In this document: positions 6,844 through 20,345 of the stretch, piece by piece
How positions within the stretch are numbered: the first letter of the stretch is position 1
How the letters are laid out: every line of letters begins with the position of its first letter
DNA from: an uncultured Chloroflexia bacterium
Lineage (GTDB): Bacteria > Chloroflexota > Anaerolineae > Anaerolineales > UBA4823
NCBI GenBank assembly: GCA_963809805.1
Contig: CAWELB010000008.1
Span: forward strand, 568,216-632,215
Reading direction: 5' to 3'
DNA length: 64,000 nt
Notes under the pieces: generated by a model
Told to the model about the DNA's origin: nothing
Databases searched by the model: none
What the model saw: only the letters and a program-made list of their open reading frames with translations
Made by a program: the position numbers and the translations under genes

Positions 6844-7569
6844 TCATCCAATTCTTCGAATCACATGAAAATTAAAATATCCGGGTAGAAAATAACTGTA
6901 TGAATAATCCACCACTCGTCCATCTGTGCTGTATAGATAGGCGATAAATCGTAACAGCACATCCCCACGTTGAATTCGCAATGCTTTAGCAACCTCAGAT
7001 TGCGCTTGAACTGCATTGATCTCACATCGCGATGACACTAATCCAGGAATCCCTCGCTTCAAGAGAAAATCCAGTATCGAGCCTGTAAAACCTTGGTTTA
7101 ATTCTTCGGTTGGAAGCTCATCTTCCGGTATGATGTCAATCAAATAGGCAACCGGCCTTCCCTCTGCCTGGATAACCCTGGAAACATTAACCACTCCATC
7201 ATGCAGATTAATTGATAAGGCTTTGGCAAATTCCTCACTCGCCGGTTGATGGCTAATCTTGATCTCCCCAGTAGTCACTTCCAAACCGATCCGCTTGGAT
7301 AGAGTCTCAATGCTTTCCAGAACTTCCAGGCCAGAATCGATTATTTGCGAAGGATGTATCACGAATGTCCCCGATCCCTGGTGCCGATATATCAATCCTT
7401 GGGTCTCAAATGTGCGCATCGCTTCCCGTAAAGTCGCTCTTGAAACGCTCAGCTGCTTTGCCAGGGCTGGCTCAGTCAACAAACGCTCACCTGGAGCTGT
7501 TTCAGCAATTATCCTGCCTAATTCCTCGTGTAATCGTTGCGATGTTGAAATTCCATTCTTGTTTATCAT
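6844..7569 (-). CDS. GntR-family regulator, HutC/UTRA subfamily
   Basis: EPALAKQLSVSRATLREA...QGSGTFV winged HTH; UTRA-like C-terminus. Confidence 0.92.
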   Translation of the reverse strand: MINKNGISTSQRLHEELGRIIAETAPGERLLTEPALAKQLSVSRATLREAMRTFETQGLIYRHQGSGTFVIHPSQIIDSGLEVLESIETLSKRIGLEVTTGEIKISHQPASEEFAKALSINLHDGVVNVSRVIQAEGRPVAYLIDIIPEDELPTEELNQGFTGSILDFLLKRGIPGLVSSRCEINAVQAQSEVAKALRIQRGDVLLRFIAYLYSTDGRVVDYSYSYFLPGYFNFHVIRRIG

Positions 7570-11768: not shown

Positions 11769-11936
11769 AATCTCTCCTTTTCGTGAAATAGGATCTCAGC
11801 GAATTTACCCACCATGTTGTATGTGATTTTTAGGAATGCCGTTTTTGATTATCCATGAAAATTGGCAATATTACAAGTAACATTAATCCTGAATTCCGGT
11901 AAAATAGCAAATACTGAAGTTAACCAGGAGAATGCC

Positions 11937-12335
11937 TTGAAAAATTATATCCATCGATTAGGTACTGTAGTATTAATTCTTATAATAATATTCCTACTTT
12001 CCGGTTGTAAAAGTGAACAGAATGGCGCGACGAAAGCCGTCGAAGCTTATATTCAAGCTTTGAGTAACAAGGATTCAATCAAGATCAGTAGTCTCTCATG
12101 TGCCGATTGGGAACAAAACGCAATCCTCGAAGTCGATTCGCTGACTGGGGTTGGATCAAAAGTAGCGAACTTGAAATGTGATCAGACCGGGCAGACTGGT
12201 AGTGATACCTATGTTTCCTGCACCGGCACACTTGATCTTGATTACAATGGAGAAGGCCAACAGATCGATTTATCCACCCGCACATATATTGCCCGGCAGG
12301 AAGACGGAGAATGGCGTGTGTGCGGTTACCGCTAA
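11937..12335 (+). CDS. Hypothetical Cys-rich lipoprotein
   Basis: AGGAG precedes TTG 11937; hydrophobic signal with LLSGC lipobox. Confidence 0.7.
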   Translation: MKNYIHRLGTVVLILIIIFLLSGCKSEQNGATKAVEAYIQALSNKDSIKISSLSCADWEQNAILEVDSLTGVGSKVANLKCDQTGQTGSDTYVSCTGTLDLDYNGEGQQIDLSTRTYIARQEDGEWRVCGYR

Positions 12336-12352
12336 CCCATTCGGAAACAGAT

Positions 12353-12472
12353 ATGCTGCGTAGATTATTTACCCGAGAGAATTTATATGCCCTGTTATTG
12401 TGCCTGATCCTGATTGCCATTTTCATTCTGACCGCGGACCAGGCTCCATTGTGGATTTATCAAGGTTTTTAA
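12353..12472 (+). CDS. DltX-like acyl-shuttle small membrane peptide (39 aa)
   Basis: Below the ORF-track cutoff. MLRRLFTRENLYALLLCLILIAIFILTADQAPLWIYQGF*: one TM helix and a C-terminal W-I-Y-Q-G-F like DltX FIYNEF, directly upstream of an MBOAT. Confidence 0.85.
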   Translation: MLRRLFTRENLYALLLCLILIAIFILTADQAPLWIYQGF

Positions 12473-12516
12473 CCCGTCAATGCAGGGTGTGAATTCCTGC
12501 TAACTCCCATAATACT

Positions 12517-13944
12517 GTGTCCTTCTTCACATTAATAATTGTAGTTTGCGCTGCCCTACTAATTGGCTTAGTTGCCAAAGGTACCTGGCGTAGTTGGTGC
12601 TTGATGGTGGCCAGTATCCTGGCAATATATTGGCTACAGCCGGCGACCCCCATTCGTCATCTTGATTTTTGGCTGCCTACTGCTTGTATCATCATCACTA
12701 TCCTGACCTGGCTGATATCACGGCCTAAGGATGTGCTAAATACACGCGTTGATATGCTGACTGGGATGGTCATTACTTCTGTAATCCTTCTAATTAGCTT
12801 GACCCGCTATCTTGGACCGGTTTGCTGTCTGACACCAACCCGCCCACCCACAATATTACAGGTTTGCATTGTCCTTTTAACTGTTTCCATCCTTGCAATT
12901 TTATTGCGGCGCTATGCCACAGGTCGGGTTTTTTGGATCTATGCGAGTATCACCTTGATCATCGGTTTGTTTGTCATCCTAAAATCGGAGACCCTGGCCA
13001 ATTTGATTAGCATTGGTCTTCGATCATTAAATTCTCAATCGGTGGAGCTCGCCTCTGCAGCTGACATTAAATGGCTCGGTTTTTCGTACGTTACTTTTCG
13101 TTTGCTCCACACCTTGCGCGATCGGTTGAGCGGGAGATTACCCGACCTCACATTGAACGAATATGTGACCTATATTATATTTTTCCCAGCCTATACAGCC
13201 GGCCCGATAGATCGCGTCCAGCGCTTCGTTCAAGATCTCCGCCAACCCTTTCGCCCTACCATAAATTCGACACTCAATGGTGGAAAAAGGATATTGTTGG
13301 GAATTTTTAGTAAATTTGTCCTGGCAGATGGTCTGGCCCTCATCGCATTGAGTAACATCAATTCAAGCCAGGTAAAATCTGTAGGTTGGTTATGGGTATT
13401 GCTATATGCGTACGCTTTCCGTATTTTTTTTGATTTTTCCGGTTATACGGATATCGCCATAGGCATGGGCCAGCTCCTAGGGATCCAGCTGCCTGAAAAT
13501 TTTGAGCGTCCGTATCTCAAACAAAACCTGACTTTGTTTTGGAATAGCTGGCACATCACCCTGGCACAGTGGTTCAGAGCATACTTTTTCAATCCACTTA
13601 CCCGATCATTACGCACTAACCCCCGCAATATACCTTTACCTCTGATAATTTTCATTGGTCAGTTAAGCACATTCATACTGATTGGTCTATGGCACGGGAT
13701 CAGCTGGAATTTTGCGATTTGGGGAGCCTGGCATGGTTTGGGGCTCTTCATACACAATCGTTGGTCAAATATAACGAAATCGAGCTCATCAAAATTAGAT
13801 AACCACCTTCGTTTGAAGAAAATGCTTGACCTTAGCGGTGTATTGATTACCTTTAACTATGTTAGTTTAGGATGGGTATGGTTTGCTTTATCCACTCCAG
13901 CGCAATCTTGGAATACTTTTCTAAAATTATTTGGGCTGGTATAG
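12517..13944 (+). CDS. MBOAT-family O-acyltransferase (DltB/AlgI-like)
   Basis: LGFSYVTFR, FFPAYTAGPIDR, FDFSGYTDIAIG, PENFERPY, FWNSWHITL, GLWHG with the catalytic His. Confidence 0.95.
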   Translation: MSFFTLIIVVCAALLIGLVAKGTWRSWCLMVASILAIYWLQPATPIRHLDFWLPTACIIITILTWLISRPKDVLNTRVDMLTGMVITSVILLISLTRYLGPVCCLTPTRPPTILQVCIVLLTVSILAILLRRYATGRVFWIYASITLIIGLFVILKSETLANLISIGLRSLNSQSVELASAADIKWLGFSYVTFRLLHTLRDRLSGRLPDLTLNEYVTYIIFFPAYTAGPIDRVQRFVQDLRQPFRPTINSTLNGGKRILLGIFSKFVLADGLALIALSNINSSQVKSVGWLWVLLYAYAFRIFFDFSGYTDIAIGMGQLLGIQLPENFERPYLKQNLTLFWNSWHITLAQWFRAYFFNPLTRSLRTNPRNIPLPLIIFIGQLSTFILIGLWHGISWNFAIWGAWHGLGLFIHNRWSNITKSSSSKLDNHLRLKKMLDLSGVLITFNYVSLGWVWFALSTPAQSWNTFLKLFGLV

Positions 13945-13953
13945 CTGGTAAAA

Positions 13954-15087
13954 ATGTCTGAAGTATCAACTACGAAGAATTTTTCATTACTGCGGGTAAT
14001 GGTCAAAGGCATTTTACTCTTCTTGCTGATCAACCTTATTTTTGCTCCATTGGCGCCACTTTCAGCTCTCGGTAAAATATCAGCCTATAACCTCTTCTTT
14101 CCTGGGCGCGTCCGTTTACCCTATGGTGAGAACCCCGAACAAGCCTACAACCTGAGTTTATATAACCTCGAAGCCATGTTTGCCTCCCATGAATTGACAG
14201 CAGGACATAAACCCGCCAATGAATTTCGGGTGCTTCTCATCGGCGATTCCTCAGTATGGGGCTATCTCTTGAAACCTGAAGATACATTATCAGCTTATAT
14301 AAACACAGCTGATCTGACAACCAAAGACGGAAGGTTGGTTCGGGCATACAACTTGGGTTATCCGACCCTCTCGCTCACCAAAGATCTGTTGATTCTCGAT
14401 GTTGCAATGCAGTACCAACCGGACTTAATTATTTGGTTAATCACCCTTGAATCACTGCCACATACCAAACAGCTGGATTCACCTCTCGTGCAAAATAACC
14501 CGACCAGGGTTCGTGATCTAATCACTCGTTTTGACATTAACCTCGACCTCCATGATTCCAACTTTGTGACTCCAAATTTCCTTGAATCCACCCTGGTGGG
14601 AGAACGCCGAGCGTTGGCTGACCTCCTTCGCTTGCAAATCTATGGCATCATGTGGGCCGCTACCGGAATTGATCAATACTACCCGGCATCCTATGAGCCT
14701 CCCCAATCAGACCTGGCCTTGGATGAATCTTTCCACGGTTTGCTTCCTCCGATATTGCGTTCTGAAGATTTATCGATGGAGATTTTGATTGCTGGGCAGA
14801 GAATGTCTGGAGAAATACCCATCCTTTATGTAAATGAGCCCATTTATATCAGCCACGGGGAAAACTCCGATATCCGGTATAATTTCTTCTACCCAAAATG
14901 GGCCTATGACCAGTATCGTTCACTCTTGGAAAATACTTGTCAGGAGCAAAGCTGGCAGTGTTTGGATGAATGGAACCTTGTGCCATCCGCAGAATTCACC
15001 AATAGTGCCATTCATATGAGCCCAATCGGGACGAAACTTTTAGCCACCGAGCTCGGACGGTCAATAATTTCCTTATCCAACCCCTGA
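13954..15087 (+). CDS. Membrane-anchored SGNH-fold protein (DltD/AlgJ-like acyltransferase)
   Basis: N-terminal TM, LLIGDSS block I, AYNLG block II, C-terminal FTNSAIHM. Confidence 0.7.
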   Translation: MSEVSTTKNFSLLRVMVKGILLFLLINLIFAPLAPLSALGKISAYNLFFPGRVRLPYGENPEQAYNLSLYNLEAMFASHELTAGHKPANEFRVLLIGDSSVWGYLLKPEDTLSAYINTADLTTKDGRLVRAYNLGYPTLSLTKDLLILDVAMQYQPDLIIWLITLESLPHTKQLDSPLVQNNPTRVRDLITRFDINLDLHDSNFVTPNFLESTLVGERRALADLLRLQIYGIMWAATGIDQYYPASYEPPQSDLALDESFHGLLPPILRSEDLSMEILIAGQRMSGEIPILYVNEPIYISHGENSDIRYNFFYPKWAYDQYRSLLENTCQEQSWQCLDEWNLVPSAEFTNSAIHMSPIGTKLLATELGRSIISLSNP

Positions 15088-15090
15088 TTT

Positions 15091-16164
15091 ATGATCCTAC
15101 CTACGAAATCAAAATTTTTTCTCTACTCTACAGTTCTTTTTTTCTACTCGATATCAGTCGTATTGGTAGCTTGCTTAAATGATCAATCCACACCAGGAAG
15201 CATTTCTAAAAATCCAATTCCCTCTTCCAGTGAACCTACCGGCGCTTTAATCCTATCCACGGTTGATCCTACCCAAGACAATCCGGGATCTCCGATACCT
15301 ACTCAGATTATTACCCAACCACCTACAATTACAGGGGAAACATTCACTCCTCAAGCATTCTCTACACCTCTGGCGATCACTCCCACTGCGTTATCGCCTG
15401 GTGATTGGATGTCTTTGCCTGTCATACCAGTAGTGAGTCAAAATTCACGAGAAATCTACCTGCGTGGGATTGAATTGGGAAATAATCCGCATGCCTTCTC
15501 CAAAATTGGAGATTGTCAAAGTATAACCACTTATTTCCTGAGTTATTTTGACAAGCCTGGTTTATATAATTTGGGAGATTATTCTTCATTGCAACAGACG
15601 ATCGATTGGTATGAAGGGTCATTTTCTCGTGACAGCCTGGCAGTGAAAGGTGGCTTTAATGCTGCTGCCATTCTCTCACCTTTGCGCGCTGACCCGAAAC
15701 AATGCAATTCTAGCGAAAACCCGATTGAATGTGAATTCCGCCTTAATCGTCCTAGCCTAGCCATCATCAGCCTGGAAGAATGGTGGGCAGGCCACCCGGA
15801 AAATTACGAAACATATATGCGCAGGATAATCGAGTATGCTATCAAACAGGGAGTAGTACCAATCATCACTACTAAGGCTGATAATCTTGAAGGAAATAAT
15901 CTGATCAACCAGACGATTGCCAACCTCGCACAGGAATACGACATACCCCTATGGAATTTCTGGGCAGCTGTACAACCCCTCCCGAACCATGGGCTGATCG
16001 CGATTAATTCTTCAGGTGAGGTAGATATGTTCCACCTTACCCATAGTGAAGGATATTACTATTATAATGATCCGTCCGCAATTCAATCAGGTTGGTCAAT
16101 GCGCAACTTTACGGCACTCCAGGCTTTGGATGCAGTCAGGCAGGGTTTGTTGGAACAACCATGA
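15091..16164 (+). CDS. SGNH-like lipoprotein with GDC in place of GDS
   Basis: VLVAC lipobox, Pro/Thr linker, KIGDCQS, C-terminal DMFH (DxxH). Confidence 0.65.
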   Translation: MILPTKSKFFLYSTVLFFYSISVVLVACLNDQSTPGSISKNPIPSSSEPTGALILSTVDPTQDNPGSPIPTQIITQPPTITGETFTPQAFSTPLAITPTALSPGDWMSLPVIPVVSQNSREIYLRGIELGNNPHAFSKIGDCQSITTYFLSYFDKPGLYNLGDYSSLQQTIDWYEGSFSRDSLAVKGGFNAAAILSPLRADPKQCNSSENPIECEFRLNRPSLAIISLEEWWAGHPENYETYMRRIIEYAIKQGVVPIITTKADNLEGNNLINQTIANLAQEYDIPLWNFWAAVQPLPNHGLIAINSSGEVDMFHLTHSEGYYYYNDPSAIQSGWSMRNFTALQALDAVRQGLLEQP

Positions 16165-16195
16165 AGATAATCTACATCTGAAATAAGAGGAAATT

Positions 16196-16441
16196 ATGAC
16201 AGCTGAGATCATGCAAACCCTTTCCACTTACATTGCAACCCAAATCCTCAAACAACCAAAGCGAGTGCTAAAAATTGATGAGCCATTACTATCCAATGGT
16301 TTGGTTGATTCATTCAGCCTGGTAGATTTATCCCTGTTTATTGAAAAAACATTTAATGTTTATATTGATAACACTGAATTAAATCGTCAAACATTTGACA
16401 CACTTGGTCAGCTCGCGGATCTCATCAAGTCTCGGATGTAA
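16196..16441 (+). CDS. Acyl carrier protein (DltC-like)
   Basis: 81 aa; GLVDSFSLVDL phosphopantetheine site; SD AAGAGG. Confidence 0.9.
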   Translation: MTAEIMQTLSTYIATQILKQPKRVLKIDEPLLSNGLVDSFSLVDLSLFIEKTFNVYIDNTELNRQTFDTLGQLADLIKSRM

Positions 16442-16451
16442 TCATCGCAAT

Positions 16452-18175
16452 ATGCTCACCGTTATGCAAAAGCTACTCCAGCTCAATGATATTGCTCCTC
16501 AGTCTATAGCTGTTCGTCTCCTTTTTAATCAGGAACCGGATCAGGTTATTTCGTATTCCAGATTGATTCACGGTTCAGTTGGTTATACAATGGCTTTGGA
16601 TAATGCGGGCATCCAACCTGGTGAAGTAGTGATTATTATTCTTCAGCATGGAGAAGACCTTCTGTATGCCTTCTTTGGAGCCATCCTGCACGGTTCCATC
16701 CCCGCAATTATGCCCTTTCTCACTGAAAAACTATCGCCTGAGCAGTATCGCCGATCATTAATATCCCTTTTTGAGATCACCTCTCCTGCAGCGGTGGTGA
16801 CATACCCAGAGTTTCTTGAAGAGGTTCAGCTTGCGGTAAAATCAAGCAGCTCGATCAGATCCGTTCTCTCATCCAACCAGATTATTCCTAATTCAGAACT
16901 TAGTTCATTAGAAAAAATATTGGGAATTAATCGGACACCTGAAGACATCGTGCTGCTGCAGCATTCTTCGGGTACAACCGGTTTACAAAAAGGAGTTGCT
17001 TTATCCAATCAGGCAGTATTTAACCAGCTCGAAAGCTATTCCCAAGCTCTCAAACTTAGTCCTTCTGATGTGATCGTAAGCTGGCTTCCCCTTTATCATG
17101 ACATGGGACTGATTGCCGGGTTTCTCTTGCCAATCCTGTTGAATGTACCCCTGATCCTACTTTCTCCATTCGATTGGGTCCGTGCGCCATATAAATTGAT
17201 GCATGCCGTGACTGAATACCATGGCACGCTTTCCTGGTTGCCCAACTTCGCCTATAATTTTTGCGCTCAAAAGATCCGCCCACGCGATCTTGATGGGATC
17301 GATCTATCCACCTGGCGGGCAGTCAGTAACTGTTCTGAGCCAATGTATTGGAAAAGCCACCAGATGTTCCTGGATCGCTTTCAGCCCTATGGGCTACATT
17401 CTTCTGCAATGACCACCTGTTACGCCATGGCAGAGAATGTTTTCGCAGTATCCCAGGGGGTATTAACCAAGCAGTGACAGTTGATCAGATCAGCCAGCGG
17501 AATTTATTAGTCAATCGAATCGCCATTCCATCTACATCAGGTGATGACTCGATCAAAATGCTGTCGGCTGGGCATCCGATAAAGAACACTCTGGTTAGAA
17601 TCCTGGATCAACATCATGCTCACCTACCCGACCGCCAGCTGGGGGAAATAGCTATTTCGAGTGACTGTATGTTGTCTGGTTATTACAATCGCCCGGATCT
17701 GACAACCAAGGCTTTTCATTCAGGATGGTACCTGACTGGTGACCTGGGTTATATCGCGGATGGTGAAATATATATTACGGGTAGAAAAAAGGACATGATC
17801 ATTGTCGGAGGCAAGAATATCTACCCCCAAGACCTGGAGAACCTGGCAAGTGAGGTTAAAGGTGTACATCCAGGGCGTGTGGTTGCATTTGGTGTACCGA
17901 ATGAGCTCACCGGAACTGAAGATGTGGTCATCATTGCTGAAGTGGATACGACTGAAAAAGATTTGATCAATGGAGAAATCGAAAATGATTTGGAAAGCTC
18001 TCCCACGATCGATCAGATTTCGGATGAAATCCGCTCACGTGTCACACGCGGCTCAGATATTGCTTTGCGTAGGGTGAAGCTCGTAAAAAGGGGCTGGCTG
18101 ATTAAGACCAGTAGTGGAAAAATCGCCCGAAATTCAAATCGCGAACGCTACATTACTGAGTTTATGGAAGATTGA
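16452..18175 (+). pseudogene. Fatty acyl-AMP ligase (FAAL), frameshifted at G5 run 17456-17460
   Basis: 5' frame has LQHSSGTTG, SWLPLYHDMGLI, PNFAY and CYAMAE; 3' frame has YLTGDLG, GRKKDMII and KTSSGK. One extra G joins them as AVSQGGINQAV. Confidence 0.85.
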
Positions 18176-20345
18176 TTGACTTCGGTCGCCAAACTGGATC
18201 GAAATCGTAGGCAGGATTTACCACAATCGGATGTCGTTCTACACCGTTTGTTCGCATCACATAGATATCATGATTCCCAGAAAACCAGCTTGTAAATAAC
18301 AACCAGTAACCGTCGAACGAGTAGTTTAAGTCCAGTACCAGCTGAGAGTTAGCCACCTCGACAGGCACCGTGCCCTCTTCTGAATAGGTGACGGCCATTA
18401 AATTGGTGGCACCGGTTGTATCGGATAATACCTGTCTTGTGTATATCACCACAGTACCGTCAGGTGACCATGCCGGTCCTTTGATGATATAGTCCCCTGT
18501 CCCCGAAATGAGACTTCGCCGGTTTTTTCCATCCGGATCCATTACCCAGATCCTGTTATCACTATTAACATAAGCAATCTCTGTTCCATTTGGAGACCAG
18601 GCAGGTTGTGAGATTGCCCTGGTCTCATCATCAACCAGAGACTTGACCGTGTAATCCAGTAAATTCAGTATGAAAATCCCAGGCACCCCCTCCTTGCGTA
18701 ATGACGTAAAAGCAATTTGATTTCCATCTGGAGACCAGCTTGGATCGTAATCACCACCTGGGGCACTCGGCAATGGGATCATTCCGGTGCCATCCGCGTT
18801 AATTATATAAAGACTTGCTCCTGGGTAAGAGCTCAAATGCCTGATGCAAGGTGATATGAATACGATCCTGATCCCATCCGGATCCCATTTTGGCTGACAC
18901 GCTCCCTCGGGGATTTCTGTGATCTGCCTTGGTTCTCTGGTCCCATCGAGATTCATAAGCCAAATTTCCACTACACCAGAGCGATTGGAAGCGAACGCTA
19001 TTTGACCCGCTCCACCCAAAGGCGTTGGAAGTGGGGTTCTTGTTATTGTGGGGGAAGGGGTTAGCGTAGGTGTTAGTGTTTGAAAAGGAGTAACTGTGAT
19101 TGTTGGTGTTGGTGAGTTGAACGTTGTAGGAGTTTGAGATAGGATGCCGATGATAGGCAGTTGAGTGGTAGTTGCTAAGGGCAAAGTAGGGGTCAGGGTG
19201 GGCATTACTCCCGGAGCGATGTACCCGATCATTCGTTTTACCAGGTCAGGTCTGAATGCATAAGTCGCAAATCCACTCAATACCAGCAAAGGTAAAAGGA
19301 TGAATAATAACCAGTCTGCTGATCGTCTTTGATTTTTTAGTGGGACTGGTAATAACTCTAAATCATCGATATCTGGATCAAGCGGGCGAGTAGATCCTTT
19401 TTTCTCCTTACCTGACCCATGACCTTTTTTTGCTCTATCCTTTCTTACTGAACTACTTACCACACCAGGTAATTGATCATGCAATGTGATCGGAGGCGGC
19501 TGCAACACCAATTCCAAAGGTACCTTTCGTCGCGAGATACTCCGGGCTTCCATCAAATCGTATCTCAGTTCATCAGCAGTTTGGTAGCGATCCTTTGGTT
19601 GAATTGCCAGACATTTTTCAATGATCTTTACCACATGATCCGATACTCTGGGGTTGAGTTTTTGGATAGCTGTCAGTTCAACCCGGTTCATAGCCCGATC
19701 AAGTCCATCTTCTGGAACCGCATTGGTCAGAGCACAAAACAGTGTTGCTCCTAGCGAGTATATATCCGATCGGCCATCGGTGCGTGCACTCCCATATTGT
19801 TCGGGTGGCGAATATCCAGGTGTCATCGCCCTCGCACCTGTATGTGTAGCTTCACGCCCCTCCACAACTTTAGCCAGACCAAAATCGACCAGATATATAT
19901 GACCGTGGGGAGTGATTCTCACATTACCGGGTTTAATATCGCGATGCAGGATGACTGGTGTCCGTGTATGCATATACGAAATTGCATCACAAATCGCTAC
20001 TCCAATAATGATCACTTCCTGTTCAGGTAATGGGCCCAACCGATCCAGCCGTTGTCTCAGATCTTCTCCCTCGATGAAATCCATGACCAGATATTGGCCA
20101 AGTGGTTCGATCACAAAATGGTCTGATACACGTGGTAAATTTTGTTGGCGTAGGCTGGCTAGAATTGTTGCTTCCAGGCGGAATTGACGTGCATATTCAT
20201 CGGTGGTGAAAAGATTTTCCTTGAGAGCCACCTCTACGCCCAGGTTCTCATCTATGGCTTTGTACACTGCCGCCATTCCGCCTTGTCCGAGGACCTCGAC
20301 AATGCGGTAGCGATTGTTCAGCAGTGAGCCAGATTCCAATGTCAT
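18162..20345 (-). CDS. Membrane Ser/Thr protein kinase with an extracellular TolB-like (PD40) beta-propeller
   Basis: LGQGGMAAVY, HRDIKPGN, DFG, TPGYSPPEQ; TM helix; Thr/Pro linker; repeated PxWSPDG. Confidence 0.92.
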   Translation of the reverse strand: MTLESGSLLNNRYRIVEVLGQGGMAAVYKAIDENLGVEVALKENLFTTDEYARQFRLEATILASLRQQNLPRVSDHFVIEPLGQYLVMDFIEGEDLRQRLDRLGPLPEQEVIIIGVAICDAISYMHTRTPVILHRDIKPGNVRITPHGHIYLVDFGLAKVVEGREATHTGARAMTPGYSPPEQYGSARTDGRSDIYSLGATLFCALTNAVPEDGLDRAMNRVELTAIQKLNPRVSDHVVKIIEKCLAIQPKDRYQTADELRYDLMEARSISRRKVPLELVLQPPPITLHDQLPGVVSSSVRKDRAKKGHGSGKEKKGSTRPLDPDIDDLELLPVPLKNQRRSADWLLFILLPLLVLSGFATYAFRPDLVKRMIGYIAPGVMPTLTPTLPLATTTQLPIIGILSQTPTTFNSPTPTITVTPFQTLTPTLTPSPTITRTPLPTPLGGAGQIAFASNRSGVVEIWLMNLDGTREPRQITEIPEGACQPKWDPDGIRIVFISPCIRHLSSYPGASLYIINADGTGMIPLPSAPGGDYDPSWSPDGNQIAFTSLRKEGVPGIFILNLLDYTVKSLVDDETRAISQPAWSPNGTEIAYVNSDNRIWVMDPDGKNRRSLISGTGDYIIKGPAWSPDGTVVIYTRQVLSDTTGATNLMAVTYSEEGTVPVEVANSQLVLDLNYSFDGYWLLFTSWFSGNHDIYVMRTNGVERHPIVVNPAYDFDPVWRPKSINLP

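Follow-up and report, generated by a model that had tools for sequence, protein, structure and literature searches.

To our knowledge, the Dlt pathway is the only bacterial system in which a membrane-bound O-acyltransferase (MBOAT) works together with a carrier protein and a separate microprotein that shuttles the acyl group on a tyrosine. As set out in passages of a 2025 paper, the MBOAT protein DltB takes D-alanine from the carrier DltC and hands it to the tyrosine in the FXYXXF tail of DltX, from which it passes to a serine of DltD (PMC12148441); in DltX itself the motif reads FLYFGF (PMC11035591, excerpt). The same passages describe PatA, AlgI and others as carrying the motif on their own MBOAT C-terminus, on two extra helices, and as using an acyl-CoA donor with no carrier protein, and describe the other MBOAT/SGNH pathways as running without a carrier protein and a DltX-like microprotein (PMC12148441). 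Here we examine a seven-gene cluster in a stretch of 64,000 nucleotides (the window) from an uncultured bacterium of the Chloroflexota, class Anaerolineae (GenBank assembly GCA_963809805.1, contig CAWELB010000008.1, positions 568,216 to 632,215). The cluster is well supported as a conserved system, a variant of the Dlt kind in which a ligase of the fatty acyl-AMP ligase (FAAL) type replaces the D-alanine ligase. We consider it on balance probable that this operon encodes a carrier-protein-dependent, Dlt-type MBOAT-SGNH relay that would move an acyl group other than D-alanine in the Anaerolineae envelope, a reading whose chemistry we infer.

All seven genes lie on the forward strand of the window at 11937-18175 (the run of open reading frames, ORFs, spans 11862-18175), co-oriented and with gaps of 3 to 45 bases. 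An earlier sequence-only reading of this DNA had described just such a tight run, and its order is the one found: a lipoprotein, a short peptide ending in WIYQGF, an MBOAT, two SGNH proteins (P4 and P5), an acyl carrier protein (ACP) and a ligase. Searches of Pfam and NCBIfam with the cluster proteins recognise the MBOAT, the ACP and the ligase and give no family match for P4, P5 or the peptide, so that P4 and P5 are placed here by their predicted folds. Scans for promoters (18 found, 14.3 +/- 3.9 expected) and for terminators (5 found, 6.0 +/- 2.5 expected) both stay at chance and are uninformative on the limits of the operon.

These genes recur together. In a sample of 401 genomes of the phylum, we count as an MBOAT orthologue a full-length match at E<=1e-85 and as a FAAL orthologue a match of at least 47% identity; a borderline match at 38% identity (G015) and matches at 27-35% inside megasynthases are not counted. 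MBOAT orthologues, at 40-60% identity, occur in 28 other genomes (29 including the window's own), all of the same class. The synteny check across the phylum that the sequence-only reading had proposed comes out as co-conservation: 27 genomes hold both the MBOAT and the FAAL orthologue versus 3 with one of them (the MBOAT only in G157 and G394, the FAAL only in G282), and 371 hold neither. When the window proteins are mapped onto the 28 orthologous MBOAT loci that we fetched, 24 show the peptide immediately upstream of the MBOAT, and P4 is present in 21, the lipoprotein in 19, and P5 and the ACP-FAAL pair in 16 each.

The incomplete loci are themselves informative. Whole-genome searches of the ten genomes with no FAAL in the MBOAT locus find an orthologue elsewhere in eight (56-60% identity), with an ACP directly upstream of it in 8/8, and P4 is encoded elsewhere in all four genomes whose cluster lacks it. 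Three genomes (G330, G085, G103) have complete loci with no peptide by the MBOAT, and there the peptide gene stands directly upstream of the distant ACP-FAAL pair; from these split loci we conclude that the peptide gene keeps company with one or the other, the MBOAT or the ACP-FAAL pair. A single functional unit would be expected to show split loci and exceptions of just this kind. The only further families to recur with the cluster are the housekeeping neighbours RF2 (23 loci) and FtsY (15 loci); no polyketide synthase (PKS), nonribosomal peptide synthetase (NRPS) or lipid genes recur beside the ACP-FAAL pair. Taken together, the recurrence of the cluster in 28 other sample genomes and a peptide tail that is invariant in 28/28 copies are far beyond chance. 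In the one genome with the FAAL only, the locus (L210, G282:C3:158253-176914) reads FtsY-RF2-ACP-FAAL, where relatives have RF2-peptide-MBOAT-ACP-FAAL, and no peptide was found anywhere in that genome.

The peptide that gives the cluster its signature is a 39-residue microprotein (12353-12472, forward strand) and a candidate for a DltX-like acyl shuttle. It has a basic N-terminus, a single hydrophobic transmembrane helix and an extracytoplasmic tail, APLWIYQGF, with the tyrosine at position -4. E8, A12, L17 and W-I-Y-Q-G-F are invariant in 25/25 aligned copies, and WIYQGF followed by a stop is kept in all 28 copies located with the MBOAT or the FAAL as anchor, a procedure in which the motif itself was not used. 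Over these 28 copies the codons vary (three for Ile, two for Tyr, two for Gln, four for Gly, two for Phe and three stops). An invariant motif with synonymous variation at each degenerate codon shows that the protein is under selection: the peptide is a real gene.

A wider view comes from the DNA pattern PxWIYQGF-stop, which is present in at least 120 stretches of a species-level genome collection; 80 of these loci are listed and form the basis of the counts that follow. The invariance of the motif among the 80 is circular, as they were selected by the pattern, and we do not count it as evidence; a short one-helix ORF with the WIYQGF end is found in 80/80. Nearly all of them are titled Chloroflexota, Anaerolineae, Anaerolineales, Aggregatilineales, Caldilineae, Thermoflexales, Ardenticatenaceae or Promineifilaceae, which agrees with the host phylum that had been guessed from the sequence alone. 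Seventy of the listed loci extend 600 bases or more beyond the peptide, and in these the next gene is the MBOAT in 61, P5 in three and P4 in one; five have no cluster gene there, and in two of these five (L143, L146) the peptide comes directly after the FAAL. The FAAL lies within six of the eight listed loci with at least 6 kb downstream, and the gene preceding the peptide is the lipoprotein in 48 of the 72 with sufficient upstream sequence. For anyone looking for this family, the invariant tail is a simple search key. Two listed loci carry unexpected titles (L095, Anaerovoracaceae bacterium; L141, uncultured Pleurocapsa sp.); both keep the order lipoprotein-peptide-MBOAT-P4 at 43-56% identity, and the likely reading is Chloroflexota DNA placed in the wrong bin, with gene transfer as the other possibility.

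The MBOAT (12517-13944, forward strand; 475 amino acids; PF03062 at E 7.4e-22) is the only PF03062 match in its own genome. The DltB model TIGR04091 matches it at 9.1e-64, with 216 bits, which is below the 375-bit cut-off, and its sole solved relatives by sequence are DltB structures (8jem, 2.8e-44; 6bug, 3.6e-44), aligned across the WH and WHG motifs. Two histidines, H346 and H393, are invariant over 27 sequences. The protein ends ...FLKLFGLV, and a shuttle tail is absent from it and from 26 aligned orthologues. These are the features expected of a DltB (an MBOAT with a conserved histidine whose own C-terminus lacks a shuttle motif), whereas the hexapeptide fused on the MBOAT, the mark of the PatA/AlgI type, is found instead on paralogues in the same phylum.

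These weaker paralogues (about 35% identity), which occur elsewhere in the 401-genome sample, provide a control. Fourteen paralogue loci were fetched and, with two MBOATs in another locus (L058, G043), make 16 proteins. Twelve of the 14 and both of the L058 MBOATs end in FIYFQF, FLYFQF, FIYYQF, FVYMAF, FIYARF or PFIYQGF, after extra hydrophobic segments; the remaining two are cut by contig ends. No ACP, FAAL or peptide match lies near any of the 16. Split and fused MBOATs in this phylum repeat the published dichotomy between the DltB type and the PatA/AlgI type, and by architecture the cluster stands on the Dlt side. One fused-type MBOAT (L204, G226:C34; ORF end at 7347) finishes in ...LTDTGAPFIYQGF, almost the microprotein tail (…APLWIYQGF), and this PFIYQGF end is a hint that, within the Chloroflexota, one of the two forms, split or fused, derives from the other. 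The two fused-type MBOATs of L058 (3719-8591), each ending in FIYFQF, sit directly upstream of the cluster, giving three MBOAT systems in a row, and each is then followed by a protein of 338 or 359 amino acids with no Pfam or NCBIfam match.

The sequence-only reading also expected the peptide to dock in the MBOAT. Co-folding of the two from their own alignments (27 and 25 rows) gives, over three runs, an interface score (ipSAE) of 0.40 (runs 0.35, 0.40 and 0.40), versus 0.01 for the best control; the runs share at least 83% of their contacts, and the predicted local confidence (pLDDT) of the partner is at least 64. Of 80 solved complexes 58 pass the mark used here, as do 2 of 110 mismatched pairs; among those that pass, only seven solved complexes but both mismatched pairs do so with a score of 0.60 or under. 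The predicted docking is clear of its control, and it earns a verdict of weak support.

At the cytoplasmic end of the proposed pathway, the ACP (16196-16441, forward strand; 81 amino acids) matches PF00550 at E 2.1e-4 (21.9 bits, cut-off 20.8) and has a conserved motif GL(I/V)DSF(S/H)L, of which the DS is kept in orthologues. Its NCBIfam matches all lie below cut-off (the DltC model NF003464 at 4.1e-7, 29.9 vs 68 bits; TIGR01688, 24 vs 52 bits), and its matches in the PDB (6cxt, 7.4e-5; DltC 4bpg, 2.3e-4) make it about equally close to DltC and to other carriers. The ligase (16452-18175, forward strand) reads in two frames, 16452-17477 and 17348-18175, and against the FAAL model PRK09192 these give 2.7e-50 and 2.2e-41, respectively.

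For the family tests of the ligase we used an intact orthologue, a 600-residue ORF (L059:10002-11804, from G362). Its best models are FAAL models, led by PRK09192 at 2.4e-101; the amino-acid adenylation model TIGR01733 is far weaker (6.1e-34), and no DltA model stands among the 25 best families listed, either for the window's two halves or for the orthologue, the best of which are of FAAL or fatty acyl-CoA ligase type. The orthologue aligns end to end with the FAAL structures 7r7g, 3kxw and 3pbk at E-values near 1e-60, and the alignment is continuous through the stretch between the YAMAEN and SCGHP motifs, which we take to be the region of the FAAL-specific insertion. The earlier assignment of the ligase to the FAAL type rather than to DltA is supported: by its sequence it appears to fall in the FAAL clade, and it is not an equivalog of any named FAAL. 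In excerpts of a FAAL review, 7r7e-g are the FAAL domain of the olefin-synthase PKS of Picosynechococcus, 3kxw is the FAAL of L. pneumophila and 3pbk that of E. coli, and substrates of the clade range from C4 to C18 acids and include some non-fatty acids (PMC11837247). Next to the ligase, on the reverse strand at 18162-20345, the window holds a 727-residue ORF that shares 14 bases with the ligase gene, 3' end to 3' end; in translation it has motifs of a Ser/Thr kinase (HRDIKPGN, DFGLA), a membrane segment and a C-terminal part rich in repeats, and in G362 a 727-residue ORF also stands directly after the FAAL (L059 11808-13991).

At the other end of the relay are P4 (13954-15087, forward strand; 377 amino acids) and P5 (15091-16164, forward strand; 357 amino acids), for which we aligned 22 and 24 sequences, respectively, from the orthologous loci. 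The claim that both are extracellular proteins of SGNH fold stands in their predicted folds, each of which shows an SGNH fold with a nucleophile in block I and a histidine in block V. P4 begins with a membrane helix (residues 12-33) and has invariant G97-D98-S99, N294 and H354. Its model has a mean pLDDT of 85.8, and its top Foldseek matches are all SGNH/GDSL proteins. Structure comparison gives Z 15.4 over 170 residues for E. coli TesA and Z 13.3-13.6 over 258-275 residues for four DltD structures, the longest alignments in the list (3bma: Z 13.6, root-mean-square deviation 4.7, 275 residues aligned). Because it is the DltD alignments that are longest, the predicted structure of P4 appears to share with DltD the SGNH core and, beyond it, the extra elements and the N-terminal anchor, a DltD-like architecture.

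The signal of P5 is of the lipoprotein type, and a Pro/Thr-rich linker leads to an SGNH domain that has GDC in block I (with Cys142 at the nucleophile position) and in which DxxH (D312, H315) and a cysteine pair (C205, C214) are conserved. Its model has pLDDT >90 for most of residues 100-357; Foldseek returns SGNH matches (4iyj at 6.5e-4, TesA at 9.4e-4), and in the Atlas it falls with SGNH/GDSL clusters of Chloroflexota at a score of 0.97. A regex-based count over 67 P5-like ORFs gives 65 instances of the motif, with Cys at the nucleophile position in 42, Ser in 19, Asp in 3 and Phe in 1; at least two of the odd instances look spurious. An alternation of Cys and Ser in block I fits a catalytic nucleophile. 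The idea that P4 and P5 form one family was rejected: their profile comparison gave only a weak match in block V (probability 1.2), and we treat them as separate SGNH families. Two loci (L046 5171-6898 and L047 6483-8228, in G085 and G103) have two P5-type SGNH domains fused in 575-581 residues, with GDD, that is Asp, at the nucleophile position of the second. In another (L050 5614-7371, G370) a membrane-anchored ORF of 585 residues with no Pfam match lies between the MBOAT and the ACP, in P4's usual place; as a relative of P4 it was rejected on comparison, being unrelated to it.

The first gene of the cluster (11937-12335, forward strand) encodes an NTF2-like lipoprotein. Its ORF is open from 11862, and the likely start is TTG 11937, behind AGGAGA, which gives a protein of about 132 amino acids with the N-terminus MKNYIHRLGTVVLILIIIFLLSGC and the lipobox LLSGC. 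Two weak matches lie below cut-off (NF051431 Rv0361_Cterm, 3.3e-6; DUF4440, 0.013), and the nearest Atlas clusters carry the name NTF2 family, with a score of 0.95.

How might these seven proteins work together? In the cytoplasm, the FAAL-type ligase would adenylate a carboxylic acid and join it in thioester linkage to the phosphopantetheine arm of the ACP encoded beside it. At its conserved histidine, the DltB-like MBOAT would then accept the acyl group of acyl-ACP and pass it through the membrane to the WIYQGF tyrosine of the microprotein, which would play the role of DltX. From there the acyl-Tyr tail could swing to Ser99 of the membrane-anchored, DltD-like P4, and P4 may acylate a surface acceptor either directly or by way of P5 (Cys or Ser) in an AlgJ/AlgX-like series; alternatively, P5 may be an esterase that edits the acylation or takes the acyl group off. 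The part of the NTF2-like lipoprotein could be to hold the acceptor or some hydrophobic ligand. Every part of the sequence-only reading that could be tested in silico is supported, and its weakest word is "fatty": the loading of the ACP and the chemistry of the tyrosine shuttle are steps that we infer, and so is a fatty cargo. Dedicated substrate genes were considered as a clue to the acid and set aside, only RF2 and FtsY recurring with the cluster. Because no substrate-making genes travel with it, the acid would be a common metabolite, most likely a fatty acid of the general pool. Given the relay that we favour, the relatives of the ligase make a fatty acid the best guess for the cargo, with the chances about evenly balanced.

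Several observations weigh against the relay, or against parts of it. By likeness to known families, the Pfam DltX model gives the microprotein no match, even at E<=10, and the motif starts with W where the FXYXXF of DltX has F; P4 has no Pfam DltD match, and TesA-like SGNH cores score slightly above DltD; and the intact ligase orthologue reaches 340 bits versus a 600-bit cut-off for PRK09192 and stays below every curated FAAL cut-off. The DltB model TIGR04091 also matches the fused paralogues, at 159-171 bits versus 216 for the cluster MBOAT; because these paralogues match only the DltB model too, likeness to DltB is not decisive, and we rejected it as a mark of the Dlt type when taken alone. 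The co-folding pass is weak, and the model that made it may know DltB-DltX-like complexes. In the genomes, ACP-FAAL shares a locus with the MBOAT in only 16/28; G157 and G394 keep the MBOAT, with no FAAL detectable by whole-genome search; G282 keeps ACP-FAAL, with no MBOAT orthologue or P4 found in the genome; and since all carriers belong to one class, the co-occurrence is confounded by descent. Finally, the window's own genome has a single FAAL copy and that copy is frameshifted, and DltB, in the passages cited above, passes a small D-alanyl group (PMC12148441).

The frameshift raises an alternative that we regard as unlikely, though as the likeliest of the three considered here, namely that the break is real, the ligase a pseudogene, and the pathway disabled in the source organism. 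The assembly reads five Gs (17456-17460, forward strand), and within this run the frame shifts and the gene is split, the two halves abutting at positions 342 and 347 of the 567 positions of the FAAL model. The FAAL orthologues are single ORFs of 571-606 amino acids, and the window's genome (95.5% complete) holds no second FAAL orthologue, so the ligase gene is the only one of its kind there. Public sequencing runs cover the stretch patchily, in short contigs; the best holder has a fraction of 0.33 of the sampled words, and none of the runs from its study bridges the site. However, a 151-nucleotide contig from another study (run X5; 98% alike, with 2 other letters, depth 3) does span the break and has one G more, which restores a frame of 574 residues, the length of an orthologue. 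The break sits in a homopolymer, apart from it both halves are undamaged, with 53-64% identity to the orthologues, and the other six cluster genes are intact. With this one contig as its basis, we think it quite likely that the frame break is an assembly error or a strain variant rather than the ancestral state.

A second alternative, somewhat less probable again, keeps the architecture of the relay and changes its load: the cargo would be a short or otherwise non-fatty acid (hydroxy, keto, aromatic or amino), and the system would decorate a surface polymer with small groups, as Dlt does. The small group passed by DltB, the closest solved relative of the MBOAT, points this way, as does a ligase that falls short of every curated FAAL cut-off and has among its nearest structures McyG (4.2e-57) and 6ulx and 6ulw (3.5e-48 and 4.8e-47), the latter two deposited as amino acid adenylation domain proteins; excerpts of the FAAL review give substrates down to C4:0 (PMC11837247). 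Yet it is fatty-acid enzymes that score best among the models and structures for the ligase (PRK09192, EcFAAL, LpFAAL, and the FAAL 7r7e-g of an olefin synthase), the E-value of 6.1e-34 for amino-acid adenylation compares with 2.4e-101 for FAAL, and the cluster has no linked genes for making a substrate.

The third alternative makes ACP-FAAL a separate lipid or metabolite pathway that is merely a frequent neighbour of an MBOAT using acyl-CoA (for example acetyl-CoA) in the manner of PatA or AlgI, with the microprotein as a split-off tail; the pair is indeed missing from 12/28 MBOAT loci, G157, G394 and G282 keep one partner without the other, and the fused paralogues resemble DltB by sequence likewise, but we judge it very improbable in view of the 27 genomes with both genes versus 3 with one in 401, the peptide encoded directly beside ACP-FAAL in G330, G085, G103, L143 and L146, the 0/16 fused-type MBOATs with an ACP or FAAL nearby, and the lack of any PKS, NRPS or lipid genes recurring beside the pair.

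Within the Dlt-type relay that we prefer, a bolder version can be put forward as a tentative possibility, which we hold to be well under an even chance: that this would be the first bacterial MBOAT pathway in which a long fatty acyl chain leaves an ACP, crosses the cytoplasmic membrane by way of an acyl-Tyr microprotein and SGNH acyl-enzymes (Ser, Cys) and ends up on a molecule of the cell surface, which it lipidates. That molecule may be a glycolipid or polymer anchor, or a secreted protein or lipoprotein. A lipoprotein is conceivable because two members of the cluster are lipoproteins and the genome has no match to the Lnt model; that negative (TIGR00546, in the window's own genome) is a lead only, as the control falls below cut-off in several genomes. 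If long-chain lipidation is right, the cluster would be a prokaryotic counterpart of the acylation of Hedgehog, Wnt and ghrelin, and would give the Anaerolineae a new, ATP-paid route to a hydrophobic envelope layer or sheath.

The sequence-only reading knew of no characterised example, and we found none in the literature either: there was no description of an MBOAT with a fatty acyl-AMP ligase and an acyl carrier protein, in a search whose scope does not extend to surveys of DltX-like microproteins in supplements. FAAL is not joined with DltB or DltD in the 15 papers listed out of 156, and DltB with Chloroflexi gave nothing relevant. The FAAL review, which runs up to 2024, mentions neither MBOAT nor O-acyltransferase (PMC11837247).

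Against this background, four kinds of known system can be compared with the cluster. If the cargo is fatty, the cluster would resemble the eukaryotic MBOATs HHAT, PORCN and GOAT in that an acceptor outside the cytoplasm receives a fatty acyl group brought across a membrane by an MBOAT. Those enzymes use acyl-CoA and transfer directly to protein, with no carrier, Tyr shuttle or SGNH partner. The stand-alone FAAL and ACP pairs (JamA/JamB, CylA, FadD32-type) are alike in having a FAAL-clade enzyme encoded beside a small ACP; they feed PKS, NRPS or mycolate machinery, whereas the partner in the cluster is a membrane MBOAT relay. The O-acetylation systems PatA/PatB, AlgI/AlgJ/AlgX and WssH/WssI share with it an MBOAT, one or more extracytoplasmic SGNH transferases and a Tyr hexapeptide shuttle, and AlgJ and AlgX are two SGNH-type proteins in series. 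They differ in that, as far as the cited passages go, the motif sits on the MBOAT's own two extra helices and acyl-CoA is used with no carrier, whereas the cluster has a separate microprotein and a linked ACP and ligase (PMC12148441).

The closest system is DltXABCD of the Firmicutes. All five of its roles appear to have a counterpart here: an adenylating enzyme, a small carrier, a motif-less MBOAT, a one-helix microprotein with an aromatic-x-Tyr-x-x-Phe end and an N-terminally anchored SGNH protein, with DltB structures as the only solved sequence relatives of the MBOAT and P4 aligned to DltD over 258-275 residues. The differences are that the ligase appears to belong with the FAAL clade and is not a DltA, that the peptide ends in WIYQGF and not in FLYFGF, that the cluster adds a second SGNH lipoprotein (Cys/Ser) and an NTF2-like lipoprotein, that the model scores of its proteins all lie below the Dlt equivalog cut-offs, and that the host is one of the Chloroflexota. 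In the cluster, the split layout of Dlt turns up in a far-removed phylum and is coupled to another class of activating enzyme. The cluster offers a handle on the poorly known envelope of the Anaerolineae, a group found in abundance in sludge, sediments and soils, and would amount to a new route of bacterial surface lipidation if the cargo is a fatty acid. On this comparison the Tyr-shuttle mechanism appears to be a general, modular form of ATP-paid acyl export and not a peculiarity of D-alanylation.

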